A stretch of 64,000 nt of DNA from an uncultured Candidatus Saccharibacteria bacterium (GCA_964368835.1 CAYJCZ010000003.1:153-64152); one strand, 5' to 3'. Counted from the first letter of the stretch, positions 8,687-53,782 are shown. The notes: generated from the letters alone by a model not told the origin. Numbers and translations are program-made.

Positions 8687-9124
8687 TTATTTATTTAAGT
8701 ATGTAATGGTAAGTTGGAGCACCGTAGCAAATGACACCCACAGTAAATACGGAATCTGAATATATGTAATCCACTTCATATGTGGGTAAATTGCTATCAT
8801 TGCCCAAATCAAAGTACCCAAGACAAGTAAAATATCTGCAGCTGCAAGAAGATTATTCTTAAGCCCAAACTGTAGAGGCGTGAAAGCAAAGTTGAATGCC
8901 AAATTCAAAATAAAAGGCAAAGCAACCACAAAAGGAATCTGCTTTTGAAAAAGCATAATAAACACCTTACCAAAGGAAATAGTGATAAGAATATAAAGAA
9001 AAGTCCAAACCGGTCCAAAAATCCACGATGGTGGTGACCACGTCGGCCTAATCAATTGTGAATACCAATTGTATGCGTTCGTCATTACCTCAGTGTAGCA
9101 CTTTTGGGCTACCTTTTCTGCCAT
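8687..9124 (-). CDS. tspO: TspO/MBR family (tryptophan-rich sensory protein)
   Basis: PSWIFGPVWTFLYILI..., five TM segments, Trp/Pro-rich N-terminus typical of TspO. Confidence 0.65.
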   Translation of the reverse strand: MAEKVAQKCYTEVMTNAYNWYSQLIRPTWSPPSWIFGPVWTFLYILITISFGKVFIMLFQKQIPFVVALPFILNLAFNFAFTPLQFGLKNNLLAAADILLVLGTLIWAMIAIYPHMKWITYIQIPYLLWVSFATVLQLTITYLNK

Positions 9125-10404: not shown

Positions 10405-10407
10405 AGG

Positions 10408-35454: not shown

Positions 35455-36436
35455 TTAGAGTCTTCGAGAATCTACTTCTTTGTAAACCATTTTTGAGATA
35501 TCTTGAATGGTCTTTTCTAGATTTTCATACACGTTACCGTGGGTCATGATGCAAATGAGATACGGATTCTCTGGATAGTACACAATTCCACAATCATGGA
35601 GCTGGCGAGTGCTATCTTCGAGTAGGCGTTCACCAAATTTGTGAGCAACCTTAACCGAAGCAGGCACCCCCCACCACTAATCCATCCTTAAATTTTGACT
35701 CAGATAGCCACTGTAGAACTTTATTAGAATTCTCGGTACTCAAAAGGGACACATTATACAAACCCCTAAACATAGATCCGTAGCGCCTGACTGACACAAC
35801 TTTATCGAAAGGATCGTCAGGGGCCAAAATACCTAATTCAAGCATTGTCTCTCCTATGATGTCCTTTCTTCCCGTGCTCTCGAGCTGAGCTGCAAGTAAA
35901 TTGGAAGAATTGTTATCAGAATAACTTAGCATTCTTCGAAGTAAGTCTTCGATTGTATATGACTCACCTGGCTTAAGTGTTTCCTCAGGAATGATATTCT
36001 GCTCAAATTCTGGTGTAGTTGGAAGATAAAGCAAAGACTCACTAAGCATTTCTGAACCAAGTTCTTCTGATTCTTTTAAATATGTAAGAGCAAAAGGTAA
36101 CTTAAGGAGACTTGCAGGCGCAAAGTCATTAAACTCATTAATACCAAAAACAGGTCCGTTTACGAGATCTCTGTAGTACACAGCCACCTCCGTAATGCTG
36201 TCTTTTGCCTTTTGTTCATCAATATATTTCTCTATGCTATTTTGGAGCGAAGCATACCCTTTTTTATCGATTACCGGCTCCTCACCGCATGCGAAATCCC
36301 TATTGATGAGAGTAAATGTTGTTTTGCACCTATGATTCCCGAAATTTACAAAAGAAAAAATTAAGACGATAACTGCAAAAGATATACACGCGTAGTTTTT
36401 AACACTACCTTTGTTCTGTAACCGGTTTGTGTTCAC
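35455..36436 (-). pseudogene. Class A beta-lactamase-like serine hydrolase interrupted by a frameshift in a C/G homopolymer
   Basis: Two adjacent ORFs, 35651..36436 and 35455..35667, in different frames. They carry SxxK (ASLLK), SDN (YSDNN) and a K[ST]G-like motif (HKFGE). The frames switch at a 6-nt C run, read as G on the coding strand, at 35667-35672. Confidence 0.45.
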
Positions 36437-37636: not shown

Positions 37637-37718
37637 AGTACTAAGTGTGTACGTGTCGATTGTTGAAATTAAAAAGAACGCTACATATCTATATCACGTT
37701 TATTTCATTCGTCAAGTG

Positions 37719-37790
37719 CTCCGGGAGAAGGGATCGAACCTTCGACCAATCGCTTAACAGGCGACTGCTCTACCGCTGAGCTATCCCGGA
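37719..37790 (-). tRNA. tRNA-Asn (anticodon GUU)
   Basis: On the minus strand: UCCGGGA acceptor, GCUCAGCGGUAGAGC D-arm, anticodon loop CUGUUAA, GGUUCGAUCC T-arm, acceptor 3-prime strand UCCCGGA. No encoded CCA. Confidence 0.85.
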
Positions 37791-37894
37791 ATGATTTTTC
37801 CTAACGAAAACAATAATAGCAGATTTTGGCTCAATGGCAACGTATTCCGAAAGGAAATGCGCATCTCGAACGTATAACCTATAATGGATATGTA

Positions 37895-38500
37895 ATGACC
37901 GAAGAAAAGCTTTCAGGATCCAAACAAGATGCCATCCTAGTCCAAAAAGCGCTCGCTTCGAGCGATGAATTCGGCCGTATCATCGAAAAGTACCAAGAAC
38001 CCCTCAGGCGCTATATAAGGCGCTTGGCGCGTCCGGGAAAGGATGATCTCGACATACTCCTTCAGGATATATTCATAAAGACCTATGAGAATCTCAACGA
38101 CTTTGACCAAAGCCTTGCCTTCTCTTCCTGGATTTATCGTATTGCACACAACGAGTCAATCGACTTTTTAAGAAGGAAAAAACGGTTTGGAGCATCGCTT
38201 GATGACCCAGCGTATGACGACGACACAATAGCACTCGCAGACACGATTGCTTCTGACACAGATATCGCAAAAGACGCTGACAAGGAATATATCAAGAAAT
38301 CAATCACGGCAGTCCTCCATGAACTTGAACCGAAATATCGTTCCGTACTTGTCCTCAAATTTCTTGAAGAAAAGGATTATGAAGATATTTCAGACATCTT
38401 AAGAAAACCTCCCGGGACGGTAGCAACACTGATCCACCGGGCAAAAAAGGAGTTCAAGAGACTGGCGCAAGAAAAAGGAATGAATCTCGAAGGCATATGA
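37895..38500 (+). CDS. ECF-type RNA polymerase sigma factor (sigma-70 regions 2 and 4)
   Basis: Region 2 FSSWIYRIAHNESIDFLRRKK. Region 4 YRSVLVLKFLEEKDYEDISDILRKPPGTVATLIHRAKKEF. An alternative upstream start lies at 37826. Confidence 0.8.
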   Translation: MTEEKLSGSKQDAILVQKALASSDEFGRIIEKYQEPLRRYIRRLARPGKDDLDILLQDIFIKTYENLNDFDQSLAFSSWIYRIAHNESIDFLRRKKRFGASLDDPAYDDDTIALADTIASDTDIAKDADKEYIKKSITAVLHELEPKYRSVLVLKFLEEKDYEDISDILRKPPGTVATLIHRAKKEFKRLAQEKGMNLEGI

Positions 38501-39207
38501 TAGAAACAAAACACATGAGCATGACATTACAAAAACAAATACTCGATCGCATCAAAACCCAAGGGGTAAAACCTACGCCTAAAGGGTACTTCAAGGTGCG
38601 TGATTATGCGTTGTGGGTGCTACTTGGTCTTTTCCTTGCCGCTGTATCTGTAGGGTTCGGCATGATCATCTATATGATCAAAACCGCTGATCTTACCCTC
38701 TTTGAAAAGCTTGGATTCTCAACTCCTGAAAAGATAATCTACTCCATTCCCTTCTTCTGGATACTTGCAACAGTAGCTACGCTCGGAATCGCATATATAA
38801 ACTTCAGAAACACGCGAAAGGGATACAAGACTAGTGCAAAGCACTTTGCTGTAATCGCGGTTCTCATTGCAGTGGCACTTGGCTCTGGTGCGTATGCCTT
38901 CAATATCGCTCGATTTATTGACAAGGCAGCATCAGCCAGAATTCCACTCTACAACTCGGTGACACCAATTAATACAAACCTGTGGTTTGATCCACAACAC
39001 GGACTCCTCTCAGGAATTGTTAAGGAAAAAAACTCTGATCGAGACTTTACACTCCGTGACCCTGACTCTGTCTTGTGGCATATAACAGGTCTTAACATCA
39101 CCATGCCGTCTGACTTTAAGTTCAGCGCAGGTGATCGAATAAAGCTTATTGGTACTGCAGGTGAAAATGATACGTTCAGTGCAATAGAAATCATTCCTTG
39201 GGAATAA
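38497..39207 (+). CDS. Membrane protein translationally coupled to the ECF sigma factor (candidate anti-sigma factor, non-canonical)
   Basis: ATGA start/stop overlap with the sigma gene. Three or four TM helices and a roughly 90-aa C-terminal extracytoplasmic domain. No recognisable zinc-binding anti-sigma domain. Confidence 0.4.
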   Translation: MIETKHMSMTLQKQILDRIKTQGVKPTPKGYFKVRDYALWVLLGLFLAAVSVGFGMIIYMIKTADLTLFEKLGFSTPEKIIYSIPFFWILATVATLGIAYINFRNTRKGYKTSAKHFAVIAVLIAVALGSGAYAFNIARFIDKAASARIPLYNSVTPINTNLWFDPQHGLLSGIVKEKNSDRDFTLRDPDSVLWHITGLNITMPSDFKFSAGDRIKLIGTAGENDTFSAIEIIPWE

Positions 39208-39215
39208 AAACAAAA

Positions 39216-39246
39216 GGCCGGTCCCGAAGGGACCGGCCTTTTGTTT
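39216..39246. terminator. Bidirectional intrinsic terminator between convergent operons
   Basis: GGCCGGTCCC-gaa-GGGACCGGCC flanked by AAAACAAAA and TTTTGTTT. Confidence 0.7.
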
Positions 39247-41542
39247 ACTGTCGAATCACTGTTCCACTACCAAGATTGTAAAGCTGTTTTGCTTCTGCCG
39301 CTGTAACGCCTCTATTATATATACGTAAATCATCCATTACACCCGGGAACATGTATGTACCCACCAGACCTTCCTGATACCCAATATCAAGATTGTCTGT
39401 TCCGCTTACAACCTGAGTTCCATAAGTATCCGTCTGAATTTCTGCACCATTTAAGTAACCTTTTATGGCACTACCGGTTCTTGTATACAAAACGTGATAC
39501 CACGTATTAAGTGCTATACCGCCAGGAAAACTAAAGGCTGACGCTCCCGCTCCATTGAGCCAAAGAGTGATACTTTCAGAGTAACCCGGATTATAAATAT
39601 ACAAACCGTATTCGGCCTTGTTCGGACCTTTATTTATTATGTTTATATAAGGATCACCTACACGGGAGAGCTTGAACCAGACTGAAAAAGTAAAATCAGT
39701 TAATGTCTCAAGACTCGAGTTAGAGGGTACGGTAATGTAATCATCTACACCATCAAACTTAAGACCCTGAGATATCTTACCTGTCGTAGGCGCGGTCGCT
39801 TGGGTCATGTTCGTCAAGGTACCATCATTACCTCGTCCTGATCTGTCATATAGAGATCCAGCCGTCGCACTTGTCCAACCAACATCAGAACCGTTGAAGG
39901 GCCAGTAGCCTACAAGACCGTTTATGACCTTCGATTTTTCAGCACCACCGACTGTTGCCACACCAGAAGTATAAAGGCTTCTGACCTCTGCATTACTTAA
40001 TTGTCTTGTATACACTCGAACGTCGTCAATTGAACCCGTAACATACTCTCCAGCAACAGCTGCAAATCTTCCAACATTCCATGTAGTATCGCCGGAATAA
40101 TAAGCGCCTGCTTGTCGCGAACCAACCTCTACACCATCTTGATACACTCTCTGCATGAGGGACGAATCCAGAGTTACAACTATATGGGTCCACCGATTAG
40201 CGATATCCGTTAACGTTACATCGACATCATCATTGAACAAAGCAAATCTGACGGAGGTGTTCGATAACAATCTCAGATGTATTGCTTTATTTGAATTTTG
40301 TTCAGTACCCAATGAAAAATAAGTTTCATTTGCAGTGTAGTTGGTTCTAATCCATGCGCTTATAGTAAAGGGTGTGCCAGCAAGATTTACTCCGGAACCG
40401 GAAACATAATCATTAACTCCATCAAGTGATACAGCTTTACCAAATTTACCGTTTGTCCATGTTGCACCCGATAAGCTTCCGCTATTATTATTTCCTGAAA
40501 AATCTCCAGCAACTGTTCCCGACCCTTCATTCATAGACCAATAACCAACAAGCCCTAGGTTGTTTGCAGGCTTCGACAAAGTTACCCGTGTTGCAGCAGC
40601 GCCAGGTGTATAAGTTATAACAATTATTCCTTGGGCAGAATCATTACCAGATGATGCATATGCTCCACCGGAAGACCCTCCTCCATACAATCCGCCTGCT
40701 CCTCCTGTACCCGAGCTCTGACACGTACCTCCTGCTCCACCACCAGAACCATGAGTTGCGTCCCACTCTGTACCCGCACCTCCGTTTCCTGCTGTACCTC
40801 CGGCATACCCAATTCCACCTCCACCTCCACCATCCACTCCATGATTTCCAGGAGATGTGAATCCTACAGACGCACCTCCACCAACCCCCAGGTAGTTATT
40901 ACCTCCAGCACCACTGTTAAAGTCACCAGGACCGCTGGTACCCGCAGAACCTCCACCACCACCTCCACCTCCAGCACCACCATAAGTTAATCCGACCCCT
41001 CCGGCGCCACCAACACCATTTGGCCCTCCAGCACCACCAGCTCCTCCAGGACAGCTTGTGTCGTTACTTGCCCCACCAGCTCCACCAGAATACTTAACAT
41101 CTCCAACACCAGATGCAGATGCGCCTCCTGGTCCCGTATAACTTCCCCCTTTTGCTCCAACCACCACCGCGGTTCCACCAATTGACGCACAGTTAGAAGT
41201 TGAATTACAGAGGTAGGTGTCTTCACCGTCCACACCGTCAGCACCAGAACTTCCCGCCCCCACATTTATACCAACACTACCACCCGGTGTGAGGGTAACA
41301 TTTGTTGATTTTGAATACGCTCCACCCCCTCCTCCAAAGTCAGCATTTGCCCCACGAGCACCCGCACCAATCACCTCGATAGTATTATTTGAATTATTCC
41401 AATCACTCGGCACCGACCATGAAGTGGCGCCAGTATCCGTGAGAAAAATCACCGTTGCATCCGCATGGACTTCAGCCACAGGTAACAAACCTAATGGCAG
41501 GATGAGTGATATCTGAAGCAATAGTGAGAAGGTCTTTTTCAT
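39245..41542 (-). CDS. Secreted protein with an N-terminal glycine-rich region and two LamG/concanavalin-A-like domains
   Basis: Signal peptide. About 300 aa of GGxGG-type Gly-rich repeats. Two LamG-like units with VGYWSMNEGSGT...DDVRVYTRQLS and VGYWPFNGSD...DDLRIYNRGVT. Confidence 0.7.
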   Translation of the reverse strand: MKKTFSLLLQISLILPLGLLPVAEVHADATVIFLTDTGATSWSVPSDWNNSNNTIEVIGAGARGANADFGGGGGAYSKSTNVTLTPGGSVGINVGAGSSGADGVDGEDTYLCNSTSNCASIGGTAVVVGAKGGSYTGPGGASASGVGDVKYSGGAGGASNDTSCPGGAGGAGGPNGVGGAGGVGLTYGGAGGGGGGGGSAGTSGPGDFNSGAGGNNYLGVGGGASVGFTSPGNHGVDGGGGGGIGYAGGTAGNGGAGTEWDATHGSGGGAGGTCQSSGTGGAGGLYGGGSSGGAYASSGNDSAQGIIVITYTPGAAATRVTLSKPANNLGLVGYWSMNEGSGTVAGDFSGNNNSGSLSGATWTNGKFGKAVSLDGVNDYVSGSGVNLAGTPFTISAWIRTNYTANETYFSLGTEQNSNKAIHLRLLSNTSVRFALFNDDVDVTLTDIANRWTHIVVTLDSSLMQRVYQDGVEVGSRQAGAYYSGDTTWNVGRFAAVAGEYVTGSIDDVRVYTRQLSNAEVRSLYTSGVATVGGAEKSKVINGLVGYWPFNGSDVGWTSATAGSLYDRSGRGNDGTLTNMTQATAPTTGKISQGLKFDGVDDYITVPSNSSLETLTDFTFSVWFKLSRVGDPYINIINKGPNKAEYGLYIYNPGYSESITLWLNGAGASAFSFPGGIALNTWYHVLYTRTGSAIKGYLNGAEIQTDTYGTQVVSGTDNLDIGYQEGLVGTYMFPGVMDDLRIYNRGVTAAEAKQLYNLGSGTVIRQ

Positions 41543-41563
41543 TCCTTTTATTCTACCAAACTA

Positions 41564-43681
41564 TTACCTAGCAAGGTTATAAAGCTGCTTTATTTCCGAC
41601 TCCGAAAGTACTCTGTTATATATCCTGAAATCATCAATAGTGCCTGGATGGTAGTACACAATACTCGATGCATTGTTATTAAAGGCCCCAATCAACATAT
41701 TAGAAAAGCTAGTTGGGCTGTCTGACGACGCCTCGGAAGCCGCAAGCACACCGTCAAAATATATAGCCTTATAGTTACCGCCATTTCCTGCCGAAACAAG
41801 TGTCACATATGTCCATTTACCTATATGGGCCGCATAGCTAGTTGAAATTCTTCCCGAACCACTCAAGTCACCATAATCCCAATACACACTCCCATCACTC
41901 CAAGGCACGTGGGCCTGAAAACGAATAGTGTCATTTGTATCTGCTCCAAAAGCAGATGCACCATCACCCGGCGTTGACGCTACATAATTCCAAAAAGAAA
42001 CAGTAACCGGACCTCCCAACCATGAGAACGTTGAGGCGTTTACATAATCATTTACTCCATCAAACTTCAAAGCTTGACCGAGTTTACCAATAGCTGTTGT
42101 CGTGGCAGTTTGACCAAATAAATTTCCGTGCTTACCTTGTCCACTCTTGTCTCTTACGTTTGGGTTCATATCCGCTCCGTCGAAGGTCCAATGCCCTACC
42201 AAACCGGATGAAAGTGATCCCCGGGAGGTGTTTTGGGTACTATTTAATTTTGAACCGCCCATTGCATACAATTGCTTTATTTCATTTGCTGATAACGCAC
42301 GGCTATATGTTCGTGCATCATCCAGGTACCCGTGAAAATCAGAACTCAATATTGTCTCAGTTGTTGGCGTGGTTGGCGTTGTTACAGCTGATAGTCCTGT
42401 ATCCACACCGTTTGCATAAAGTCTCCATGTACCTGCATTCCGAACCGCCACAATATGCGTCCACTCTCTTGTTGGCATCTGATACGTTGAATTCAAAACA
42501 TTACATGATATTCCACCGATCAAAATATCAAGCTTATTACCCGTACCACAAGCACTACCGTCGATAATCAAACCGTAACCATTTGCACCTGTGTTTCCGT
42601 TATACAAAATTACTTGCAAACCACTCGTGTCGAGCCAATATGCCCAAATAGAAAGTGTTACGTTATCAAGTTGGGTCATAACAACCGACGACACTTTAAC
42701 ATCATCATCCGCATCGACACTCAGCGCTTGCCCTATTTTACCTGGCACTGAGGTTGTGGAAGTTTGACCTGTGATATTCGCATGCTTACCCTGTCCACTC
42801 AAATCTCTAACATTGGGCACCATGTCTTTACCATCAAAAGTCCAATGTCCAGTTAACGAAGATTGAAGTCCGGTAGGAGAACCTGACGAAGAAACCTTTG
42901 TTCGATTCGAATTATACAATCCCTTTATTTCACCTAGCGAAAGTGCTCGGTTATATATGCGAATATCATCAAGTTTTCCATTGTAATTGAAATACGTCGC
43001 AGGCCCTGTGTGATAGCGCGCACCGAGTGATACGTCTACATTTTCATGAGGAAACGTAAAAGGGCGTGTACCCGCTTGATCAACCCACGTCTCCTGAGCG
43101 CCATTCAAATATATTTCAGGGTTGTTTGAAGCGTCCACCACAACCACCGCGTGATACCACGTACCACAACTAACAGCAGTACTTCCACGACCGGCTTCAC
43201 CATATATATCTCCGCCAACTGGTCCTCCCACAAAAGATACATACCCACCATCAAGCTGAAGCTGATATTGAATACTGGTATCACTCGATCTTTTCGCAAG
43301 TATCGATCCAGACGAAGCAGCACAATTAAACCAGGTGCTTATCGTAAAAGGACCGTTTGTAAAATCCAACGCATGCCCTCCTCCGCTTGAACTTTTGACC
43401 CTTACCACATCATCAGAGCCATCAAATAAAAGTGCCTGCCCAAGAGGTCCTAAAACTGACGTTGTAGCAGTAAAACTTTCCAAAATACCATTGTGCCCGT
43501 ATCCACTACTATCACCAACATCCTGTAACATTTTTCCACCATCAAAGGTCCAGTGACCTACAAGCCCTAGCTGATTTGATGGTTTGTTTAGAGTCGCAGC
43601 AAAAACGTCCTCATAGAAAAAGAAACCCATGAGTACTATCGGAAAAAATATCCAGAAATGTATGTGGTTTTTTATTTTCAT
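41564..43681 (-). CDS. Secreted protein with three tandem LamG/concanavalin-A-like domains
   Basis: Signal peptide. Three repeats of (L)VGHWTFDG...DDIRIYNRALS with the conserved W and Y-H core. Confidence 0.7.
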   Translation of the reverse strand: MKIKNHIHFWIFFPIVLMGFFFYEDVFAATLNKPSNQLGLVGHWTFDGGKMLQDVGDSSGYGHNGILESFTATTSVLGPLGQALLFDGSDDVVRVKSSSGGGHALDFTNGPFTISTWFNCAASSGSILAKRSSDTSIQYQLQLDGGYVSFVGGPVGGDIYGEAGRGSTAVSCGTWYHAVVVVDASNNPEIYLNGAQETWVDQAGTRPFTFPHENVDVSLGARYHTGPATYFNYNGKLDDIRIYNRALSLGEIKGLYNSNRTKVSSSGSPTGLQSSLTGHWTFDGKDMVPNVRDLSGQGKHANITGQTSTTSVPGKIGQALSVDADDDVKVSSVVMTQLDNVTLSIWAYWLDTSGLQVILYNGNTGANGYGLIIDGSACGTGNKLDILIGGISCNVLNSTYQMPTREWTHIVAVRNAGTWRLYANGVDTGLSAVTTPTTPTTETILSSDFHGYLDDARTYSRALSANEIKQLYAMGGSKLNSTQNTSRGSLSSGLVGHWTFDGADMNPNVRDKSGQGKHGNLFGQTATTTAIGKLGQALKFDGVNDYVNASTFSWLGGPVTVSFWNYVASTPGDGASAFGADTNDTIRFQAHVPWSDGSVYWDYGDLSGSGRISTSYAAHIGKWTYVTLVSAGNGGNYKAIYFDGVLAASEASSDSPTSFSNMLIGAFNNNASSIVYYHPGTIDDFRIYNRVLSESEIKQLYNLAR

Positions 43682-43683
43682 TA

Positions 43684-44220
43684 TTATTCAAACTTCCAGG
43701 TCGAAAATATTGACTGAAGAAGCGAATCAAGTCGTGCGTACGTCGAAATTTGATACAAAGAACTCTTGTACACAAACCAGACATCTCGAGACGCCCCGCC
43801 GAAATCAGGATTGTCACTTAGAAACGCTACACCTTTATGTTCTGATCCAATATCCACCGACTGTATATTTTCCATCTTTAAGTCTGGGATATCTGCTTTG
43901 ACCATATCGCTTGTTAGCACCTTTATGTTGTCAAAAGGGCTAATAAGAATCTGTATCCCGTCGCCAGCTTTATTTTCAAATATAATTGTGTCACCCGCAT
44001 CAGTCGTGAGTTCACGAGGATTGTAGTCGGCAGGTAAAGTAACCGCAAACCCATATTTTTTGTTTGCATATAATGAGCCTCCATTTGGTAGTTTTACTGT
44101 CTCCCCCTTAAGACTACTGCCCTGTTCTACCTGTGTAGACCAGCTGTAACCAAATGACAAATATATAGCCCCCAGAAGAACTAGAATCGCGAGAATGGTG
44201 ATGATGATTGTTTTTTTCAT
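43684..44220 (-). CDS. Small secreted/membrane-anchored protein (178 aa)
   Basis: N-terminal signal/anchor MKKTIIITILAILVLLGAIYLSF. Immediately downstream of the giant fibre gene in the same operon. Confidence 0.5.
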   Translation of the reverse strand: MKKTIIITILAILVLLGAIYLSFGYSWSTQVEQGSSLKGETVKLPNGGSLYANKKYGFAVTLPADYNPRELTTDAGDTIIFENKAGDGIQILISPFDNIKVLTSDMVKADIPDLKMENIQSVDIGSEHKGVAFLSDNPDFGGASRDVWFVYKSSLYQISTYARLDSLLQSIFSTWKFE

Positions 44221-44244
44221 AGTTGTGTTAATAATTTAATGTAA

Positions 44245-47200
44245 TTAAGGAGTTTCAGCTGGGACTTCGGGTACTGGAGCCGGATCTACAACCGGCGGCT
44301 CCACTAAAGGTGTTTCCTCTACTGGCGGCACAGGCTCCTCTTCTATGACTGGTGGTGTTGTCGTGCCGTTGTCCCCCGTGTCTCCATTATTATCTATTAC
44401 ATCTGGGGTTGTTGTTCCTGTATCACCACCTTCATCACCATCATTATTTGGAGGTATCGCAGGTGTTGGAACGTATGACCCACACTCTCCCGGTTCAGTT
44501 CTCATAATTCCTGCTTCCATATAAATACATGTTGGTAGGCCGCTTGATCTATCAAGAACTGTGACTCCAGACTTTGCGAGATTGTCTATGTCGCCAACCC
44601 TGAGAGTCTTTGTTTGTATTGTGTCCGCCTCGACTGTTTTGATATAAGCGATATTTGCAGTTAAGCTTTCAGCCACTACAGAAACAAATGTTGCAATCGC
44701 ATTTTCTATTTTTGCTCCGAGTGACTCAATCCAGCCTGACACAATCGCAATAGTTGTAGAAGCAGTTGTTGTTGCAGTTGATGAAGCGAATTCGTCTGTT
44801 GTAGAAGCAATCACTCGTTCAAATCCATTTGCTTCGGCATATGTTTCGAGCGCTGCAAGTCTACCTTCAATACCAAGCATTCGATTCTCTAGATTTGTTA
44901 CAGATAGATTAAGTGATTTAATCGCTTCGATTATAAACGGTGTAAATCCGCCGTACGCTACGCTCTTGAGGCCGTTTGTTCCTGTTGTTACAAGCTCAGG
45001 GAACACAGCCTCTACGTCCTGTGCAATAAATCCGTAACGAAGTGAGTCGCTTGTATCTTCTTTATTCCACCTGAATGAAACTGCCTGAAGCTGCGCCATT
45101 CTCTGGAGAGTTTCATCTGTTGCCACATTCTGTATATCCTTTTTAAGAGATCTGTCTGAAGTACATGTCCATGTTGTTGATGTAGGGTTTATTTCGCAAT
45201 ATCCATTTGCATCTTCAAATCGCACAGGTGCTTCGTCTGCTGTTGTATAGACATGTAATTTCCTCTGTGGAGTCGAGGTGCCGATGCCAACTCCTGAATC
45301 CTGAATTCCACCAGAACCGTTTGCTTCTGCGTATACAGTCAATATTGGATTGCTATCAATCTGCGCGCTATAGCTTTGTACTGTGTTTGCTGCAGCAGAA
45401 GATGAAACTGGCAAATCTGACCAGCTAACGATTCCGGCATCTGTATCAAATGACAGTGATCCAGAAAGATTAAGGCCGTTTATTGATGTAATTCCAGATG
45501 AGTAATCATAGACAAGCGCGCCGCTTCCAACATCAAGACCTCCGGCTATAGTTGATGTTGCTGTTGTGGATGTTGCGGTGAAGTTTCGAGAAACAGTCTC
45601 ACCTGCCACTGAAAGCTTTGCGTATGGAGATGTTGTACCGACACCAACTTTTCCAAACGCATCAATTATAAACGCAGTAGAAGTTGCTGTTCCGGCTGTA
45701 GATGAAGCTACAACAAAGAGTGGTGCTGAGCTACTTGTGGTTGCCTGCACTGTTAGCTTTGCATATGGAGACGTCGTGCCAACACCAACATTTCCAGAGC
45801 TATCAACCGCAAGAATAACATCAAGTGGATTTGTGTTTGCACCTGAGTAGAAATAAGTATCGCCACCAGCAACATTTCTAATCTCAAGCGACCCTACACG
45901 ATGAGCACCGGCTGAAGCCGTGGCCATGAAATCAATTACCGCCTTATCTACTCCTCCGTCGCTCAGCAAGATGTGTGGCCCTCGAGTTGTTGCAGATCCA
46001 ATTGATCCAAGTTCAATTACGGGTATTCCTGAGCCCACAATCTCAAGAAGGCTTGTTGCGGTAGTTGTTCCGATTGCAAGGCTTCCTGCTATGTATGCGT
46101 TACCTGTGGTTGTTGCGCCCCCGTTGATGGTGAGTCCACCCGCCTGAGCACCCGAACCAATCGTAGATGAAGCATTCAAAATAAGTCCTCGGGTTGTTGT
46201 TGGAGCGAGATAGCCGTTTCCTTGTACTGAGAAATCTCGGAACTGTGAAGCATAGTAATTTGAGGACGTAGTCGCCCATGTACCCCCCACACCTCCTTCA
46301 TCAGTACCGCAAGAAAGCACTCCGTTTGCATCAGTGTCTATAGTGTTACATCCCACAAGACCTGTGAAAGCCACAGTACCTGTTGCTGTAAGGTTTCCTC
46401 CTATATATGCAGAGCCTGCAGTAGAGAGTTTTGCAAATGGTGACGTGGTGCCAACACCAAGATTGCCGTGAATAAATGTAGTTCCATCTCCAAGAATCGA
46501 GAATCGAGTACTTGTAGCGGTTGATACCTTAAAGAGTCCAGCGGTAGTAAGTGAATGAATTGTATCGAATTCGTATGCACTTCGTTCCACAGGATCAGAG
46601 GTAAGAAGCATGGTGTTATCTCGAGCTGGATGGAAGTAGAGCAAGTCAATACCGTTTGTATGTACATCAGTAATTACATTTGAACCTAAATAGAATGCTT
46701 CTGACATGTCCCCTTCATTTTCTTCGGTAGCGAGTGCCCCTATTCCTATGTCGAAATACGTTGACGTTGCTGCGCGTTCAGTGGAGAGCGAAAGACCCGC
46801 ATTGGCAGCCTTTGAAAATATATAGCTATCCGTGTTACTTCCAAGAGCAACATTGTCGCCTGTAACATTCAATCGGCTTAAAGTATCTGTCACTGTAGAC
46901 TGTACAGTTTGGTTCGTGGCTACGCTTGCAGGATCGTACACACCGAACAAAAATCCATTTACATTTTTCTCGAAACTGCCAGGAACCATTGTCTTCATGC
47001 TAGCAATCGAGTATTTGTATGCTGACGAAGCCTCACCCATGGTTTGATCCATAAATGATTTTGTGGTTGACCCCATAGTGACTGATCCATTTCCATAGAC
47101 ACCGAATTGCTCATATCCACCTGATCTCAAAGAGGTAAGACGCATGTCTGGGTAAAGAATTTCTTCTGCACTTGAGTCATATCCATCCCACGCTAAAGCC

Positions 47201-50200
47201 CCAGATGTGTCCACTGTAAATGCTGTACCCTGTGTAAACACATTAACCGGAGTCACGCTTGATACTACAGAAAGTTTTGCGTATGGAGATGTTGTACCAA
47301 TACCAACATATCCAACTGATCCTGCTGCACCGAGGACAGTAAGTTTTGCAGCATCAGAAGGTCCGATCATGAGAGAGTTTGCAACATCGTTTGTAATGTC
47401 TGCGCCCAAGATTGTGGTTGATGCAGCAGATGCTGTATTTTTGTAACCAATGACTGTTGAGCTTGCTGCGGCAGTAGTGTAATTTTGGTATCCAAAGACA
47501 CTTGCAGAGTCACTAAATACGTCAGACGCGTTGTCATAGCCAAATACAGAAGCTCGTTTACCTTTAACATAGTTACTGTATCCAACAAGAGTTGCGTATG
47601 ATGATCCAACATCAACGTAATTGCTTGCACCCAAGAGAGTTGCGAATGGACTATCCGTATAATCTACAACGTTAGACAGACCAATTAGAGTTGAACTTGC
47701 TGCTACAGAGTAGTTGTTGTAACCAAAGAGGGATGAATAGGCGCCCGACTGTTCAGAGCCAAATGAAGAATTTTCACTTTGTACTTCTACTGACTTAAAT
47801 CCACGCGCACCACCTGTTGCTTGTCCTATGAGAACCTCACTGTTAGAACCTAATAGTTTGAGCTTGCCTGTGATTGAAGCAGTATTAATATTTGGATCAA
47901 AGTAGAACTCAGCAGTTGTGGTTGAGTTAGAGCCAATAGCAACAACATCGCTCGTATTGTTTGGATAGTTTATGAGAGTGCCTGAAACTGTCGATGTTGT
48001 TGTTGACCATGAACCCCCGCCAGAACCTCCACCGGCTCCACATGCTGAGCCCGTGCCTGTGACCTGGCCGAGTGAGTTAACTTGAAGACACTGAGTAGAG
48101 CCGGTGATAGATGTGATAGCGAGGTTGGTTGTAGATGCTGTGCCTGTTGCAGTGAGGTTTCCTCCTATATATGCAGAGCCGGCGACAGAGAGGAGTGCGA
48201 ATGGAGATGTGGTACCGATTCCAACGTTGCCTGTTATATAAGATACTGCAGATGATGAAGATGAAGTATTAAACCATGGGCCAACAGGAGCGTTTAATCG
48301 TGCAATGTAATTTTTATTAAGATTCGCATTTGAAGTTATAGGCGCGCGATAGATTACGTTTGTATATGAACTTCCGTTATATCCACCAAAGAGGTACACA
48401 TTATCTCCAATAACTGAAACTTGTGATACATCTAGGTTTCCAGGAATCGTGTATCCCGTATCAGTCCAGCTTGTTGGATTTGAAACTGGTGCGCGGTAAA
48501 TCACGTTTGTGTATGAACCATTGTAGCCACCAAAGAGATACACATAATCGCCGACGACCGCAATCTGAGATCGATTGAGGGCGGCCGGAAGTGTTGCTCC
48601 CGTATTAGTCCAGCTAGTTGGATTTGAAACTGGTGCTCGATATATAACACCACTTGCACTTCCCGTGTCTCCGCCAAAGAGGTATACATAATCGCCAAGA
48701 ACAAGACCTTGAGAATAACCTAGATTTCCTGGAAGTGTTGCTCCCGTATTAGTCCAGCTTGTTGGATTTGAAACTGGTGCGCGGTAAATTACATTCGTAA
48801 CACTTCCATTGTCTCCTCCATAAAGATAGATATAGTCTCCAATAACAAGTACTTGTGAGTTACCAAGATTTCCTGGGAGTGTTGCACCTGTATTAGTCCA
48901 GCTTGTTGGATTTGAAACTGGTGCGCGGTAAATCACGTTTGTATATCCTGAACCGTATCCTCCAAAGAGATACACATAATCTCCAATTACAAGCACCTGA
49001 GAATTCTGAAGAATTCCAGGGATTGTTGCTCCAGTGTTTACCCAGCTTGTTGGGTTTGAAACTGGTGCGCGATATATAGTACTTGCAACACTCGAGTTAT
49101 TTCCTCCAAAGAGATACACGTAATCACCAATTACAGCTGACTGTGATTCACCAAGATTTCCTGGGAGTGTTGCGCCGGTGTTTACCCAGCCACCTTCAGT
49201 AAGTTGATATCGTACAGATGCAGCTGATGAAATCGGTGTCCAATTAGAAGCAAGAATTGTCGATGATGAGTACGCATTTCTAAATTCAATAACTCCCCCG
49301 TTCTCACGAATACCATAGCCACCAGAACCTGACTGGAATGCTGAACCAAAGTTTACATATCGGCCCGTGCCCTCCAAATAAAGATTTCCATATGCAGTAA
49401 TGCTTGATGTTGCAGCAGGAGTTGTTGTACCAATTCCAAGTCGTGAGGCAAAATAGGCATTTCCTGTGGTAGTAGAGTTAGTTGTTGTTGCATTCACCAA
49501 AGTTACGTTAGCAAGAGTTGAAGATGCGGTGAGAATAAGTCCTCGTGTAGTCGTCGGTGCAAGATATCCGTTTCCCTGAACAGTGAATGCAGAGAAGTTT
49601 GAAGCATAGTAGTCAGAAGATGATGTAGCCCATGATGATGAACCAGCTCCGCAAGCAGAGCCTGTACCTGATACTTGGCCGAGTGAGTTAACTTGGAGAC
49701 ACTGTGTAGAGCCTGTGATAGATGTGATAGCGAGGTTGGTTGTAGATGCGGTGCCTGTTGCTGTGAGGTTTCCTCCTATATATGCATTACCTGCGACTGA
49801 TAGAAGTGCGAATGGTGATGTGGTACCAGCACCAATACCTGTTGCGCTAACAGTGAGTGTTGGATTAGCTGTGTATCCCACCTGGAAGGTATCTGCAGAT
49901 GAGTTGGTGAACCCCTTACCGAATGCGGTTGAGAGAGCTGCGGTTGCGTTTACGTTGTCTCCAAAAGCGAATGAACCGCTGCCTGTAGACGTAACAGCTC
50001 CTGCATTTGCATAACCTGCAGCAAATGATCCGTCTCCTGAAGACGTCAAATTCCTAAATGCATATCCAAATGCAACCGATCCGTTTGCTGACGCACTCAA
50101 TGTTGCAGGAGCAGCAATTCCAACAGCAACTCCATATGCAAGTGATCCACTACCAGAGGAAAGAATTGATGCGTTTCCTGAGCCAAGAATACCGCTTGCA

Positions 50201-53200
50201 ACACCTCCAGCAAAACCACCTCGAATTGTAGTTTGTATTGAGCCTGTACCTCCGAGTGTTCCTGATGCAGCTCCGTAAACCATCGATCCCTCAACAGCGC
50301 TTACCACCGCAGAACCTGTAGTGGTACCCACAGCGAATGCTGACCGGCCGGCATAGACATTTTCTTGACCAACCACTACTCCACCAGCAAATGATGAGGT
50401 TGCTGTTGTAGATGTTGCGGTGAAATTATCTGCTACAACTTGACCACTTACTGACAATTTTGCGTACGGAGAAGTAGTACCGATACCGACGTTTCCTCCA
50501 AAATATGCACTTCCGGTCGTTGTTGCTGTTCCGTTGATTGTGAGTCCTCCTGTAGCAACTCCACTTCCAATAGTTGAAGAAGCAGAAACTATGAGACCAA
50601 GTGTAGTGGTTGGACGAAGAGTTCCTGAAACAACGTTCCAATCTCGGAATTGTGACGCGTAGTAATCAGAAGATGTTGTTGCCCATGAGCCAGAGCCTGA
50701 TCCACAAGCTGAACCTGTGCCTGATACTTGTCCGAGTGAGTTAACCTGGAGACACTGAGTTGAGCCAGTGATTGAGGTGATTGCGAGGTTGGTTGTAGAT
50801 GCGGTGCCTGTAGCTACAAGGTTTCCTCCGATGTATGCTGAGCCGGCGACGGATAGTTTTTCGAATGGAGAGGTTGTAGCAATACCGACGTTGCCTAAGT
50901 TTGTGATTATAAATCTATTTCCATTATCCACTGTATTATCATCTGAGCTAACCATAAACAATGTAGATGCGCCCCCTGCACCAGTAACTTCTAATGCTGC
51001 ATCTGGACTAGCATCATTAATACCCATCAAACCATTCACATCCAAAGTCACAACACTCGCATCCGTAGCATTTCCTATAGAAAATCTTCCGCTATTACTT
51101 ACCCAATTTGACCATCCAATTCCAGATGCCTCGTTATAAATTCCAAGACCCCACGAGTTTTCATCATTCTGGGATATAACAAAATTTGCAGGAAATCCCA
51201 AGAAACTACCAGAACCAGGTCCATCAATTACAACTGATCCTAAAACCGGAGTTGTACTTCCAATTCCAATATTGCTTGCAAAATACGCTCGACCTGTAGT
51301 TGTAGCAGCACCATTAACAGTCAAGCCCTCTATCCCATTTCCAATCGTAGATGAAGCATTAACAATCAAACCTCGAGTTGTCGTAGGTGCAAGATATCCA
51401 TTTCCCTGAACAGTGAATGCATTGAAGAGAGATGCGTAGTTGTTTGCTGATGTGGTTGAGAATGCTGAAATGTTCTGCTGTGTGAGCCAGTAGTCAGCAG
51501 ATGTAGTTGAGTAGAAGTATCCCTTGTTGAGGGTATCGAGGAATGTCTGTACTCGTGAGTTCTGGTAGTAGAGGTTAGAACCTTCAGCAACGTCTGTAGT
51601 GAGAAGTCCGAGAGATGATGTTGCGATCTGCTGGTATGTACCACCTGCGTATGAACCGATGAGGATTCCTGCAGCACTTGGGTTAGCTATACCTGTACCT
51701 CCTCGAGATGCGGAGAGGGTGCCTGTCCATGTAGGAGTGAATGTGTGAATGTCACTTGCAGAAGTAATGGTAAGACCAATATTAGTGTCAGATGAAGTTG
51801 CAAACACCTGTCCTGCACCGCTCTGGTTTGAAGAAAATTCACCTCGCAATGCGGTAATGCCACCGCCCGCTCCCGCGTCAGTACCGCAAGAAAATTGTCC
51901 TGTGGTTGAATTCCAAATTAATTTATCTGATGATCCAGAACAAGAAGAAAGTCCTGCGCCACGAACAGTACCCTCTATATATAGAGCAGTTGTCGTAGCA
52001 TTTGTACCTGTAGCATTTAAAAATGTAATATTCGCAAAATCTACATTGTTAGAAAATGTAGTTGCGCCAGTGACTGTTACCGTTCCCGCAAGGGTTGGGT
52101 TTGTAAGCGTGAGATCTGTTGTATCAACAGAATTATTAATTATTGTTGTTCCTCCGCCGCCACCGCCCGAAGATGTTCTCTGACTTAATCGATCAGAAGT
52201 AGTTCTGATATTTTGCAGTAAGAGATCTACCCGTGAACTTACTGTTGCGAGATCCGTTTGAAATGAGTTTTGAAGTAAATCAATTCTCTGATTGAAATCC
52301 AAAGAAACTAAATCCGCAACCTGACGAGCACTGAAAGAGTACTGCAAAGAATTACTTTCAACTGGTGAGCCTACCGAACTTGATGTGTTGAAGTTCTGAA
52401 CAATTACTTCAGGTCGCACAACCACCGATTCCTCTGACTCTGAAGCTTGGTTATTACCACTAACAACAAAATCAGAAACAGGGATCCTGTTGGTCGATGT
52501 TGCTGGTTTGTCAGTTTTTCCAATATTAGCAAGTTTCTCTTTAGCACTATTCAAAGTTGAACCTGCAGGCACCTGAGCAACTTCAACCTTCGGTTTGCCG
52601 CTACCAAAAACAAGTGTCCATCCCTTATTGAAAAGTGGATTTATAAACTCGTACACACCGACCGCTGATGCTTCGAGCACCCCTTCTGTCACTACACCGG
52701 CATTTGAAACAGCCGCCATAAAATCGTTTGATGAAAGAACTGGCGATCCTGTTTCAGACGCAGACTGTATTCCCGCTGCAACTTCAGTAGAAAAATTAAA
52801 TATTCTTTCTTTGAGAAGACCTAGTGATTTAAAAGCTGAACCAATATTTTTCGAATTTACAAAATTAAAACTGCTGACAGCAATGAGACAAATTAAAGCG
52901 AGCGCAACAAATTTTTTCGTGTATGAAGGTTTACCATACTCGGATACAGTAATAGATTTTTTAACTTCTTGTACAGGAACAGCTGTAGGTTTTACAACTG
53001 GAGTAGCAATAATAATTTTTTCAGGCTTCACAGATACCTTCTTGAGCTCTGGCAAAAGTCCCCTGCTATCTGAATCATACTTTAGTAATTTTTCAAGGAA
53101 AACTTTAGGAGCATCAATTGCCTGAGCATCCGAGATCGCCTTATGAATCAAGGGCTTTGATTCCTTCTGTGACAAAGATTGGGATTTCAATGAAGACAGG

Positions 53201-53400
53201 AGGTTAGCACCTTTGTCCGCAGTTATGTGGTAGTTGAGAATTGAGGATTCACAGACAAACCAGAGCCGACCTACCTTTGTTGCCTCAATTTTTCCATCTC
53301 GGATGAGTTGCCCCACATAGTCCTGAGTATAGCTACAGGCTTGGGCAGCTCGTCTAGACGAGATGAACTTTTTTCCATCAATAATGAGTTGATCGCTCAT
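44245..53400 (-). CDS. Giant 3051-aa protein: N-terminal excisionase/MerR-type HTH, single TM helix, extracellular repetitive fibre with a 6-blade Kelch-like propeller, C-terminal peptidase S74 intramolecular-chaperone domain, coiled-coil and Pro-rich tail
   Basis: N-terminal SSRRAAQACSYTQDYVGQLIRDGKIEATKVGRLWFVCESSI matches HTH_17. TM helix KKFVALALICLIAVSSFNFV. At least five dispersed copies of a VAGSAYIGGNLTATGTASTTNLAITSITGSTQCLQVNSLGQV(S/T)GTGSACG unit. Six GDYVYLFGG...VIYRAPVSNPTSW Kelch repeats. CTSDRSLKKDIQNV...LQAVSFRWNKED...GFIAQDVEAVFPELV matches the S74 domain. C-terminal TPPVIEEEPVPPVEETP. Confidence 0.8.
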   Translation of the reverse strand: MSDQLIIDGKKFISSRRAAQACSYTQDYVGQLIRDGKIEATKVGRLWFVCESSILNYHITADKGANLLSSLKSQSLSQKESKPLIHKAISDAQAIDAPKVFLEKLLKYDSDSRGLLPELKKVSVKPEKIIIATPVVKPTAVPVQEVKKSITVSEYGKPSYTKKFVALALICLIAVSSFNFVNSKNIGSAFKSLGLLKERIFNFSTEVAAGIQSASETGSPVLSSNDFMAAVSNAGVVTEGVLEASAVGVYEFINPLFNKGWTLVFGSGKPKVEVAQVPAGSTLNSAKEKLANIGKTDKPATSTNRIPVSDFVVSGNNQASESEESVVVRPEVIVQNFNTSSSVGSPVESNSLQYSFSARQVADLVSLDFNQRIDLLQNSFQTDLATVSSRVDLLLQNIRTTSDRLSQRTSSGGGGGGTTIINNSVDTTDLTLTNPTLAGTVTVTGATTFSNNVDFANITFLNATGTNATTTALYIEGTVRGAGLSSCSGSSDKLIWNSTTGQFSCGTDAGAGGGITALRGEFSSNQSGAGQVFATSSDTNIGLTITSASDIHTFTPTWTGTLSASRGGTGIANPSAAGILIGSYAGGTYQQIATSSLGLLTTDVAEGSNLYYQNSRVQTFLDTLNKGYFYSTTSADYWLTQQNISAFSTTSANNYASLFNAFTVQGNGYLAPTTTRGLIVNASSTIGNGIEGLTVNGAATTTGRAYFASNIGIGSTTPVLGSVVIDGPGSGSFLGFPANFVISQNDENSWGLGIYNEASGIGWSNWVSNSGRFSIGNATDASVVTLDVNGLMGINDASPDAALEVTGAGGASTLFMVSSDDNTVDNGNRFIITNLGNVGIATTSPFEKLSVAGSAYIGGNLVATGTASTTNLAITSITGSTQCLQVNSLGQVSGTGSACGSGSGSWATTSSDYYASQFRDWNVVSGTLRPTTTLGLIVSASSTIGSGVATGGLTINGTATTTGSAYFGGNVGIGTTSPYAKLSVSGQVVADNFTATSTTATSSFAGGVVVGQENVYAGRSAFAVGTTTGSAVVSAVEGSMVYGAASGTLGGTGSIQTTIRGGFAGGVASGILGSGNASILSSGSGSLAYGVAVGIAAPATLSASANGSVAFGYAFRNLTSSGDGSFAAGYANAGAVTSTGSGSFAFGDNVNATAALSTAFGKGFTNSSADTFQVGYTANPTLTVSATGIGAGTTSPFALLSVAGNAYIGGNLTATGTASTTNLAITSITGSTQCLQVNSLGQVSGTGSACGAGSSSWATSSSDYYASNFSAFTVQGNGYLAPTTTRGLILTASSTLANVTLVNATTTNSTTTGNAYFASRLGIGTTTPAATSSITAYGNLYLEGTGRYVNFGSAFQSGSGGYGIRENGGVIEFRNAYSSSTILASNWTPISSAASVRYQLTEGGWVNTGATLPGNLGESQSAVIGDYVYLFGGNNSSVASTIYRAPVSNPTSWVNTGATIPGILQNSQVLVIGDYVYLFGGYGSGYTNVIYRAPVSNPTSWTNTGATLPGNLGNSQVLVIGDYIYLYGGDNGSVTNVIYRAPVSNPTSWTNTGATLPGNLGYSQGLVLGDYVYLFGGDTGSASGVIYRAPVSNPTSWTNTGATLPAALNRSQIAVVGDYVYLFGGYNGSYTNVIYRAPVSNPTSWTDTGYTIPGNLDVSQVSVIGDNVYLFGGYNGSSYTNVIYRAPITSNANLNKNYIARLNAPVGPWFNTSSSSSAVSYITGNVGIGTTSPFALLSVAGSAYIGGNLTATGTASTTNLAITSITGSTQCLQVNSLGQVTGTGSACGAGGGSGGGSWSTTTSTVSGTLINYPNNTSDVVAIGSNSTTTAEFYFDPNINTASITGKLKLLGSNSEVLIGQATGGARGFKSVEVQSENSSFGSEQSGAYSSLFGYNNYSVAASSTLIGLSNVVDYTDSPFATLLGASNYVDVGSSYATLVGYSNYVKGKRASVFGYDNASDVFSDSASVFGYQNYTTAAASSTVIGYKNTASAASTTILGADITNDVANSLMIGPSDAAKLTVLGAAGSVGYVGIGTTSPYAKLSVVSSVTPVNVFTQGTAFTVDTSGALAWDGYDSSAEEILYPDMRLTSLRSGGYEQFGVYGNGSVTMGSTTKSFMDQTMGEASSAYKYSIASMKTMVPGSFEKNVNGFLFGVYDPASVATNQTVQSTVTDTLSRLNVTGDNVALGSNTDSYIFSKAANAGLSLSTERAATSTYFDIGIGALATEENEGDMSEAFYLGSNVITDVHTNGIDLLYFHPARDNTMLLTSDPVERSAYEFDTIHSLTTAGLFKVSTATSTRFSILGDGTTFIHGNLGVGTTSPFAKLSTAGSAYIGGNLTATGTVAFTGLVGCNTIDTDANGVLSCGTDEGGVGGTWATTSSNYYASQFRDFSVQGNGYLAPTTTRGLILNASSTIGSGAQAGGLTINGGATTTGNAYIAGSLAIGTTTATSLLEIVGSGIPVIELGSIGSATTRGPHILLSDGGVDKAVIDFMATASAGAHRVGSLEIRNVAGGDTYFYSGANTNPLDVILAVDSSGNVGVGTTSPYAKLTVQATTSSSAPLFVVASSTAGTATSTAFIIDAFGKVGVGTTSPYAKLSVAGETVSRNFTATSTTATSTIAGGLDVGSGALVYDYSSGITSINGLNLSGSLSFDTDAGIVSWSDLPVSSSAAANTVQSYSAQIDSNPILTVYAEANGSGGIQDSGVGIGTSTPQRKLHVYTTADEAPVRFEDANGYCEINPTSTTWTCTSDRSLKKDIQNVATDETLQRMAQLQAVSFRWNKEDTSDSLRYGFIAQDVEAVFPELVTTGTNGLKSVAYGGFTPFIIEAIKSLNLSVTNLENRMLGIEGRLAALETYAEANGFERVIASTTDEFASSTATTTASTTIAIVSGWIESLGAKIENAIATFVSVVAESLTANIAYIKTVEADTIQTKTLRVGDIDNLAKSGVTVLDRSSGLPTCIYMEAGIMRTEPGECGSYVPTPAIPPNNDGDEGGDTGTTTPDVIDNNGDTGDNGTTTPPVIEEEPVPPVEETPLVEPPVVDPAPVPEVPAETP
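45570..50900 (-). repeat. Dispersed intragenic near-identical repeat units (fibre unit of about 110-200 nt, at least 5 copies) inside the giant gene
   Basis: For example 48100-48240, 49720-49860 and 50770-50890 all share gaggttggttgtagatgc.gtgcctgt.gc....aggtttcctcc.at.tatgc... at close to 90% identity. Confidence 0.6.
48250..49260 (-). repeat. Six tandem roughly 145-nt Kelch-blade repeats inside the giant gene
   Basis: The block gttggatttgaaactggtgc.cg.ta.at recurs at about 48469, 48759, 48899, 49040 and elsewhere. Protein-level repeats are almost identical. Confidence 0.6.
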
Positions 53401-53782
53401 AAAATTTCAATACGGCTATTATCCCCCATGGCAACAGAAGTAACTATGTGGAAAATCAGGTCGCAATTCGTAGTTTTTAGAGGGAGTTCTGCCTGTTAGG
53501 ACGAGCATAGACACAGGACTTGTGTTTCTGAGGGATTTGTTTCCTTTGATGGATTAGAGTTTAATCTCCGTAGGCTGAGCCAGACTTATCCTGAATTGAT
53601 TTCCATGGCTACAAACAACAGATTTTGATAGTAATGTTTATCAATGTTTTAAAAGCAGTAGAAAAGATGACCTAAGAATTGCTACCCCTCCAACTGAGCA
53701 CGTTTTAGAAACTAATTTTACGCATTCTGAGCAAAATTGAATTTGCTATCAATTTTGACCGATCTCATATAGAGTAATCTGT

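Follow-up and report, generated by a model that had tools for sequence, protein, structure and literature searches.

In a 64,000-nucleotide (nt) stretch of DNA from an uncultured bacterium (GCA_964368835.1 CAYJCZ010000003.1:153-64152; the whole stretch is referred to here as the window), we found a cassette of four minus-strand genes at positions 53400 to 39245. They encode a giant fibre-like protein of 3,051 amino acids (aa), a small protein of 178 aa and two secreted proteins with LamG domains. The conserved core of the cassette is the pair formed by the small protein, whose predicted fold is PsbP-like, and the LamG proteins; the giant, which carries a Peptidase_S74 (S74) domain, and a gene for a serine-hydrolase-like protein are frequent companions. 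We read the cassette as a lineage-specific surface adhesion module of Paceibacteria, in which a trimeric fibre would act together with secreted lectins docked or assembled by the PsbP-like anchor, and consider this reading about as probable as its negation. The named relatives of the window's proteins were found in metagenome-assembled genomes of Ca. Taylorbacteria, Kaiserbacteria, Adlerbacteria, Paceibacterota and Minisyncoccia; judged by these protein sequences, the genome is of the Paceibacteria/Parcubacteria type within the Candidate Phyla Radiation (CPR).

An open reading frame (ORF) scan placed the giant gene at 53400-44245, the small-protein gene at 44220-43684, a triple-LamG gene at 43681-41564 (705 aa) and a glycine-rich double-LamG gene at 41542-39245 (765 aa), all on the minus strand. 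Between 37826 and 39207 lies a plus-strand pair, a sigma factor gene and its partner, that converges on the four genes. As the junctions were read directly, the intergenic gaps proved to be 24, 2 and 21 nt, in order from the giant to the last LamG gene, and these distances support a tight co-directional unit. A first-pass annotation of this DNA had proposed an operon with gaps of 24, 3 and 22 nt; the tight layout and the first gap stand, and the other two values were off by one. Its ORFs for all six genes were reproduced exactly by the ORF scan. Weak terminator-like matches inside the operon (21, against 14.2 +/- 4 expected) were not above chance.

Gene order was compared among relatives by scanning the small-protein alignment over one genome per GTDB species. 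This gave 22 loci (numbered with the prefix L), 21 of them with downstream sequence, whose ORFs were compared with the window proteins; L026, L027 and other close relatives were examined beside the 22. In 20 of the 21 informative loci the small-protein gene was directly followed by one to three multi-LamG genes, L021 being the exception, and the same adjacency was present in L026 and L027. The gap between the two genes was typically -16, -4 or +1 to +3 nt (median +1) when start codons were chosen with the guidance of signal peptides. Conservation of gene order across related genomes, which the first-pass annotation had named as a check of its operon, was therefore found for this step. A single small-protein gene accompanies several LamG genes in L010, L011, L016 and L019, and the number of LamG genes and of their domains varies even among close relatives.

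Two of these loci showed rearrangements around the pair. In L027, an IS200/Y1-transposase-like gene (10617-11336) lies between the small-protein and LamG genes. L014 carries an array (398-11330) that comprises a Gly-rich protein, a small paralogue, two LamG proteins, the small protein, a further LamG protein and another small paralogue. Altogether four small-protein paralogues are interleaved with LamG genes at this locus, and the tandem arrangement indicates local duplication of the small-protein/LamG pair.

The small protein itself had no match in Pfam, NCBIfam or PHROGs, even at E-values up to 5, or in PADLOC. Homologues fall into 118 clusters, 37-85% identical, and each of these is unnamed or 'hypothetical'. 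The family alignment consists of a variable N-terminal transmembrane (TM) helix and linker followed by a domain of ~130 residues with 21 invariant positions, and the C-terminal motif SREVWFVFRGNLYQISTYARLD is strongly conserved. An AlphaFold2 model (pLDDT, the predicted local distance difference test, 88.9) comprises an uncleaved N-terminal TM helix at residues 3-24 and then an alpha/beta sandwich, which superimposes on that of PsbP as expected of a PsbP/Mog1-like fold; structural alignments with folds of the PsbP/Mog1 class had 8-17% identity.

These predictions alter two earlier views of the small protein. It had been described as secreted; its domain is indeed predicted on the exported side, but the uncleaved helix of the model makes it membrane-anchored and not freely secreted. 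It had also been noted that its gene sits where phage tail-fibre assembly chaperones usually sit. With Tfa and gp38 chaperones it shares only that position, directly 3' of a fibre gene: the predicted structure is PsbP-like and unlike fibre chaperones, and a Tfa/gp38-type chaperone was ruled out by the Pfam, NCBIfam and PHROG scans together with two fold searches. As modelled, then, the small protein is a membrane-anchored protein and not a Tfa-type chaperone. The giant fibre in any event has an intramolecular chaperone of its own, the S74 domain.

Comparison of the model with predicted viral structures returned phage lipoproteins as the only significant matches, and the small-protein family had no relative in IMG/VR. 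The best of these viral matches were surface lipoproteins of phages, a point that bears on an alternative explanation of the pair: LamG proteins could be antagonistic effectors directed against the envelope of a host or competitor, with the small protein conferring immunity on the producer. The conserved tight translational coupling and the interleaved paralogues of L014 would fit such an arrangement as well. However, the LamG proteins contain Laminin_G_3 domains only, with no toxin or enzyme domain, and neither PADLOC nor the toxin families gave a match. The small protein is also the better conserved partner (~45% identity and the 21 invariant columns, against ~30% for the LamG proteins), the opposite of the co-diversification typical of immunity proteins and toxins, and often one small protein serves two or three LamG genes. 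As one small protein accompanies one to three LamG proteins and is more conserved than they are, docking or assembly is favoured over one-to-one immunity, and we regard the effector-immunity explanation as improbable.

Both LamG proteins scored far above the Pfam cut-off for Laminin_G_3 (PF13385; 27.6 bits). The 705-aa protein carries three copies of the domain (192 bits) and the 765-aa protein two (156 bits). Their signal peptides are predicted to be cleavable, at ...VFA/ATLNKP in the 705-aa protein and at VHA/DA in the other, and neither protein has a recognisable anchor, in contrast to two other large surface proteins of the window, which carry PG_binding_1. In the 765-aa protein, the signal peptide is followed by a glycine-rich domain of ~290 aa (nt 40589-41461) and then by the two LamG domains; the glycine-rich domain had no Pfam match at E-values up to 5 and no PDB sequence match at E-values up to 1, but it may be akin to the glycine-rich domains of ALK-type or phage proteins. 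A full-length orthologue of this protein, 46% identical, is present in L027. From their domain content, we consider the LamG proteins putative sugar-binding lectins.

At the head of the giant, aa 7-64 (53209..53382, minus strand) form a winged helix-turn-helix (HTH) domain of the HTH_17 type that is predicted to be cytoplasmic. This head matched phrog_6401, a DNA-binding protein, at E 1.5e-4 in PHROGs, and Pfam HTH_17 at E 7e-4, under the gathering score; HTH_17 was matched by all five members of our HTH-head alignment A2 (best 1.1e-5), and a PDB profile search with the HTH alignment gave no match. A 100-aa linker separates the head from a single TM helix at aa 163-183 (52852..52914, minus strand), and there is no signal peptide. 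The helix was the only segment over the threshold in a Kyte-Doolittle scan. As it is preceded by KK, the giant is predicted to be oriented N-in/C-out, with a cytoplasmic N-terminus and ~2,860 residues outside the cell.

The predicted ectodomain contains nine G(I/V)G(T/S)(T/S)(S/T)P..KL motifs and seven closely spaced Cys pairs, and Ser, Gly, Thr and Ala make up 47% of the residues of the giant. A six-bladed Kelch beta-propeller was recognised at aa ~1395-1690 (48331..49218, minus strand) by Pfam Kelch families and its IYRAP(V/I) blades, which have a 48-aa period; the corresponding 144-nt DNA repeats are 71-78% identical. Repeats in the giant gene as a whole are 71-80% identical at the DNA level and must thus be old, with no sign of recent recombination or of an assembly artefact. 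Giants at other loci do not conserve this propeller.

Near the C-terminus lies the Peptidase_S74 chaperone/autoprotease domain (aa 2748-2805; 44986..45159, minus strand), with 57.7 bits for PF13884 against a cut-off of 22. The Ser-Lys dyad, Ser2748 and Lys2753, stands at the start of the domain in the motif SDRSLK, of the form SDxxxK, and the domain aligns with the C-terminal domain of the phage S16 long-tail-fibre protein gp37 (6f45), which has SDRRIKKDI. Approximately 245 residues follow the S74 core, including a tail rich in Pro, Asp, Glu and Thr. PHROG matches of the giant were to long-tail-fibre and virion structural proteins. By its sequence features, therefore, the giant is a type II membrane protein with an ectodomain like that of phage tail fibres. 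An S74 domain above its gathering score with an SDxxxK motif, a single N-in TM helix and paired cysteines all support the fibre reading, and by analogy with other S74 proteins we infer that the domain would drive trimerisation of the giant and its self-cleavage. The first-pass annotation had listed an HTH-TM giant fibre with a propeller, and each of these elements, together with S74, was recovered.

Giants related to that of the window were found just upstream of the small-protein gene in L004, L005, L006, L009, L016, L018, L019 and L024, with 41-54% identity to aa ~2530-2840 by BLASTP. As L013 has a fibre-like ORF of 845+ aa in the same place, a giant-type gene is present in about nine loci. 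The complete S74 giants of L009, L016 and L019 repeat the whole architecture of HTH, TM helix, fibre, S74 domain with SDxxLK and Pro-rich tail. In these same three loci, the giant is closely preceded on its own strand by a gene for a translational GTPase (L009 558-2363, L016 3007-4842, L019 2304-4088). These GTPases are 27-29% identical to the TypA of the window, which is near the giant but divergent from it, and probably represent another paralogue.

Several results weigh against an adhesion module built around this fibre. No giant was found within 10 kb upstream of the small-protein gene in L011, L012, L015 or L020. L027, a relative at 56% identity, bears a different giant instead. The segment just 5' of the S74 site (aa ~2530-2747; 45160..45813, minus strand), which would be the distal tip, is by BLASTP the best-conserved part of the giants, and this is unusual for a determinant of host specificity. 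Finally, folds like that of PsbP also occur in immunity proteins, in lipid-binding envelope proteins and in sigma-E regulators, so that the predicted fold leaves the function of the small protein unfixed. The L027 giant has a signal peptide, a Gly-rich segment and propeller-like GNGLFVAV...TSPDGITW repeats.

The likeness of the giant to tail fibres raises the question of whether the cassette is a prophage remnant or a domesticated tail-fibre module. The S74 domain and the PHROG matches would agree with such an origin, and LamG proteins have been reported on CPR phage contigs in metagenomic studies (PMC11310336). Yet no capsid, terminase, portal, tail-tube or integrase genes surround the cassette in the window, where its flanks are FtsJ, TypA and the sigma pair, and the same chromosomal place is occupied by the cassette in several relatives. 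The N-terminal TM anchor of the giant and the lack of IMG/VR relatives of the small-protein family also speak against a phage origin, which we consider highly improbable.

For the adhesion module, we propose the following sequence of events. The giant would insert into the membrane N-in, and its S74 domain, acting as an intramolecular chaperone, would drive trimerisation and folding of the fibre that precedes it. Self-cleavage at Ser2748 through the SDRSLK dyad would then expose the distal tip, with the Kelch propeller forming a side knob in the middle of the fibre. The small protein, as a membrane-tethered protein-binding domain translationally coupled to the LamG genes, would most likely dock, hold or help to assemble the anchorless lectins at the surface. 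Fibre and multivalent lectins together would attach to another cell or surface through its glycans or proteins, and from this combination we infer carbohydrate-directed attachment to a host. Two lines of published work are relevant: MAT proteins of Bdellovibrio are an experimental precedent for S74 fibre adhesins on a bacterial surface, and LamG/concanavalin-like proteins have been proposed as CPR attachment factors, where they are mentioned only generically as candidates (PMC10769870; PMC11310336).

The cytoplasmic head of the giant allows a more far-reaching interpretation. When the N-terminal 200 aa were used in a word-based search, three matches only were obtained. An exhaustive profile search with the HTH head found 7,929 representative clusters at E<=1e-3, of which 431 reached E<=1e-30. 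The best 150 matches (P0160-P0309) were all short double-HTH proteins of ~300-400 aa. A cluster look-up of the double-HTH proteins returned no names. In P0157, the sole example read, a TM helix follows the HTH pair.

On this basis, the giant could serve as a trimeric contact fibre and, at the same time, as a one-component transmembrane regulator, and the PsbP-like/LamG pair could be a previously unrecognised, class-wide lectin-display system; we rate this combined interpretation as unlikely. Under it, either trimerisation by the extracellular S74 domain or load or ligand acting on the fibre would gather three cytoplasmic HTH_17 domains, and the altered DNA binding would link cell contact directly with transcription or nucleoid tethering. 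A cytoplasmic HTH domain fused to a giant extracellular fibre is an unexplained architecture, and if the HTH-TM family consists of membrane-tethered DNA binders, a general signalling principle of tiny cells may be at hand.

The operon ends at a terminator. By direct sequence reading, the 37 nt between the convergent stop codons (39208-39244) form one hairpin, which a terminator scan detected in part. The stem is a perfect one of 10 bp, of G and C, GGCCGGTCCC-GAA-GGGACCGGCC (39216-39238), flanked by an A-tract on one side and a T-tract on the other. With these tracts around a G+C stem, the hairpin is a bidirectional intrinsic terminator common to the operon and the sigma pair, in agreement with the first-pass annotation. 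At the opposite end of the operon, a non-coding gap of 382 nt (53401-53782) separates the giant gene from a divergent FtsJ/TlyA-like gene and is long for a compact genome. An Rfam scan of the whole window returned two tRNAs only and no structured-RNA family in this leader. A sigma-70 promoter scan gave fewer promoter-like sites than shuffled sequences and no convincing promoter in 53401-53782.

On the other side of the terminator, the plus-strand sigma gene ends at 38500 and starts at either 37826 (TTG) or 37895 (ATG). The ATG start is the more likely because L026 does not keep the TTG and gene callers predict 201 aa, which is the probable length. The protein is a sigma factor of the extracytoplasmic function (ECF) class, group IV, with Sigma70_r2 and r4_2 only; TIGR02937 scored 90.3 bits against 42.9, and every equivalog cut-off in NCBIfam was missed (for SigW, 104 against 209). 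Its stop codon overlaps the start of the partner gene (38497-39207, plus strand; 236 aa) as ATGA at 38497-38500, read directly, as the first-pass annotation had stated; the multi-TM partner described there has three TM helices. Approximately 38 cytoplasmic N-terminal residues with one short helix precede these helices, and an extracytoplasmic OB-fold domain is predicted at aa ~165-236. No Pfam or NCBIfam match was obtained for the partner, so that no zf-HC2/RsiW-type anti-sigma domain was recognisable at its N-terminus. From the ATGA coupling alone, the partner is a putative anti-sigma factor.

Orthologues of the sigma factor in L026-L031 are 69-94% identical. In an alignment of the sigma upstream regions of five relatives, two elements are common to all: GAAAG-N17-CGTA (37849-37874, plus strand) and CTATAAT, the TATAAT of which lies at 37880-37885 in the window. 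The latter ends 8-9 nt before the ATG (9 nt in the window) and suggests a leaderless or near-leaderless sigma transcript, besides the ECF-like element. Over the 90 nt that precede the sigma ATG, the window and L026 are nearly identical, although the proteins of the two are ~93% identical. A tRNA-Asn(GTT) gene (37718-37790, minus strand) is divergent to the sigma gene, with a sigma-70-like promoter, TTGCCA-16-TATTAT with TG, at 37840-37813. The tRNA-sigma adjacency is kept in L026, L029 and L031; in L030 only a fragment of tRNA sequence appears in the alignment, and ARAGORN finds no tRNA there.

ECF sigma factors often control neighbouring envelope genes, and a signal from the envelope or from contact, sensed by the OB-fold, might free the sigma factor to transcribe the fibre operon. 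The extracytoplasmic OB-fold of the partner is suited to ligand sensing, and the pair is convergent on the cassette, with a shared terminator, in L026, L027 and L029. The element expected under such control is absent, however: strict GAAAG-N17-CGTA occurs at two sites only in the window, 37849 and 25989, and is found neither in the 382-nt leader of the giant gene nor in the operon. The earlier suggestion that ECF-type elements be sought upstream of 53400 thus ended without the sigma factor's own element being found there. In L030, the order is sigma, partner, a small ORF, FtsJ, one further gene and TypA (90% identical to that of the window), with no cassette, and in L031 other genes intervene. 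Orthologues of sigma and partner were found within ~10 kb of the cassette in none of the 22 more distant loci, and it is only presumed that the partner acts as an anti-sigma factor. Control of the fibre operon by this sigma factor is, in our estimate, doubtful to the point of improbability.

The first-pass annotation had counted the sigma/partner pair as part of the module, which the comparison does not support; the pair adjoins the cassette only in the close relatives L026, L027 and L029. Both genes are part of a conserved backbone (PriA-Def-Fmt ... tRNA-Asn-sigma-partner ... FtsJ-TypA), and the cassette occupies an adjoining variable slot. The sigma factor and its OB-fold partner would form a separate envelope-signalling pair that shares its terminator with the cassette by chance.

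The absence of the cassette from L030 also bears on the possibility that these genes serve envelope biogenesis or housekeeping, with the PsbP-like protein (cf. LpqN, DcrB), the beta-lactamase-like hydrolase and the LamG proteins acting in assembly of the wall or surface layer. A gene of the Beta-lactamase2 family is present in many loci (L005, L007, L010, L011, L015, L018, L026, L027, L029 and, at 35651-36436, the window), and members of the small-protein family are well conserved throughout the class, which fits such a role. But the flanking backbone is kept in L030 with the cassette gone, so the cassette is dispensable; the numbers of LamG copies and domains vary strongly, and the S74 phage-fibre architecture is typical of adhesins and not of wall enzymes. 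We consider this explanation rather unlikely.

Other exported proteins are encoded near the cassette. One is another giant surface protein, 1,860 aa long (57270-62852, minus strand), which contains Laminin_G_3, Flg_new_2, Big_7, fn3 and two PG_binding_1 domains. Further exported products are a 900-aa Ig-like/PG_binding protein (31592-34294), a CAP-domain protein (34394-35452) and the beta-lactamase-like protein. Exported proteins, these included, take up about half of a 30-kb stretch.

To our knowledge, almost nothing is known of how Parcubacteria/Paceibacteria, which rank among the largest groups of uncultured bacteria, hold on to other cells, prior work being concerned with the type IV pili of Saccharibacteria. 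The cassette offers concrete and widely conserved candidates for attachment. One is the S74 fibre, presumably self-processing and comparable to the fibres by which Bdellovibrio recognises its prey; the second is the unannotated PsbP-like family, which is nearly always paired with multi-LamG lectins. A literature search on the gene combination, the small family, S74 in CPR bacteria, HTH-TM-S74 giants and Minisyncoccus attachment proteins yielded nothing specific, most subscription journals being outside its scope; within the same limit, the statement of the first-pass annotation that the combination is not a described system held.

Among characterised systems, the closest to the giant are the MAT (mosaic adhesive trimer) proteins of Bdellovibrio bacteriovorus in their S74 subgroup; they resemble it in being chromosomally encoded, phage-tail-fibre-like fibres on the surface of a bacterium living on other cells (PMC10769870). 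Members of this subgroup have a C-terminal Peptidase_S74 domain with SDxxxK, at which they self-cleave, as was demonstrated for Bd3182, and they recognise prey; their stalks carry repeated loop motifs of the type V/I-G-x-x-x-x-P-x-x-K-L, and their binding modules are variable (PMC10769870). Compared by description, MATs differ in being ~1,000 aa long, with a signal peptide and a conserved beta-rich anchor of ~130 aa that the giant does not have at its N-terminus. At three times that length, the window giant bears a cytoplasmic HTH domain and a TM helix, a Kelch propeller and ~245 residues after S74. In addition, no PsbP-like or LamG partner genes have been described for MATs (PMC10769870).

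K1F endosialidase, T5 pb1 and S16 gp37 share with the giant the S74 domain and its catalytic dyad, as seen in the direct alignment with 6f45 and the PHROG tail-fibre matches. Unlike phage fibres and tailspikes, the window giant does not stand in a virion gene context, is far longer and would be attached by its N-terminus to the membrane instead of a baseplate. MYRF, too, is a single polypeptide in which S74 is found together with a TM helix and a domain of the DNA-binding type. Its S74 separates the DNA-binding domain from the TM helix, S74 and the DNA-binding domain both being on one side of the membrane, and cleavage frees the DNA-binding domain, whereas in the giant ~2,560 residues and the membrane separate HTH from S74, so that cleavage at S74 could not free the HTH domain.

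The small protein differs from the PsbP/Mog1/DUF1795 (Eag)/DcrB/LpqN class in its lack of a detectable sequence relationship, its own C-terminal motif and its strict linkage to LamG genes. Haloarchaeal TafC (NF052521; PMC11821415) is similar to the LamG proteins at the level of the LamG-like domain. As their scores of 97 and 61 bits are far under the cut-off of 410, only this domain is shared and the two are not members of TafC; they also differ in having Sec signal peptides, in coming from a bacterium and in the absence of TafA and TafE genes. S74 fibre adhesins and LamG lectins are already known, and in this cassette they occur together with a PsbP-like family not described before and with an unusual head of HTH domain and TM helix.

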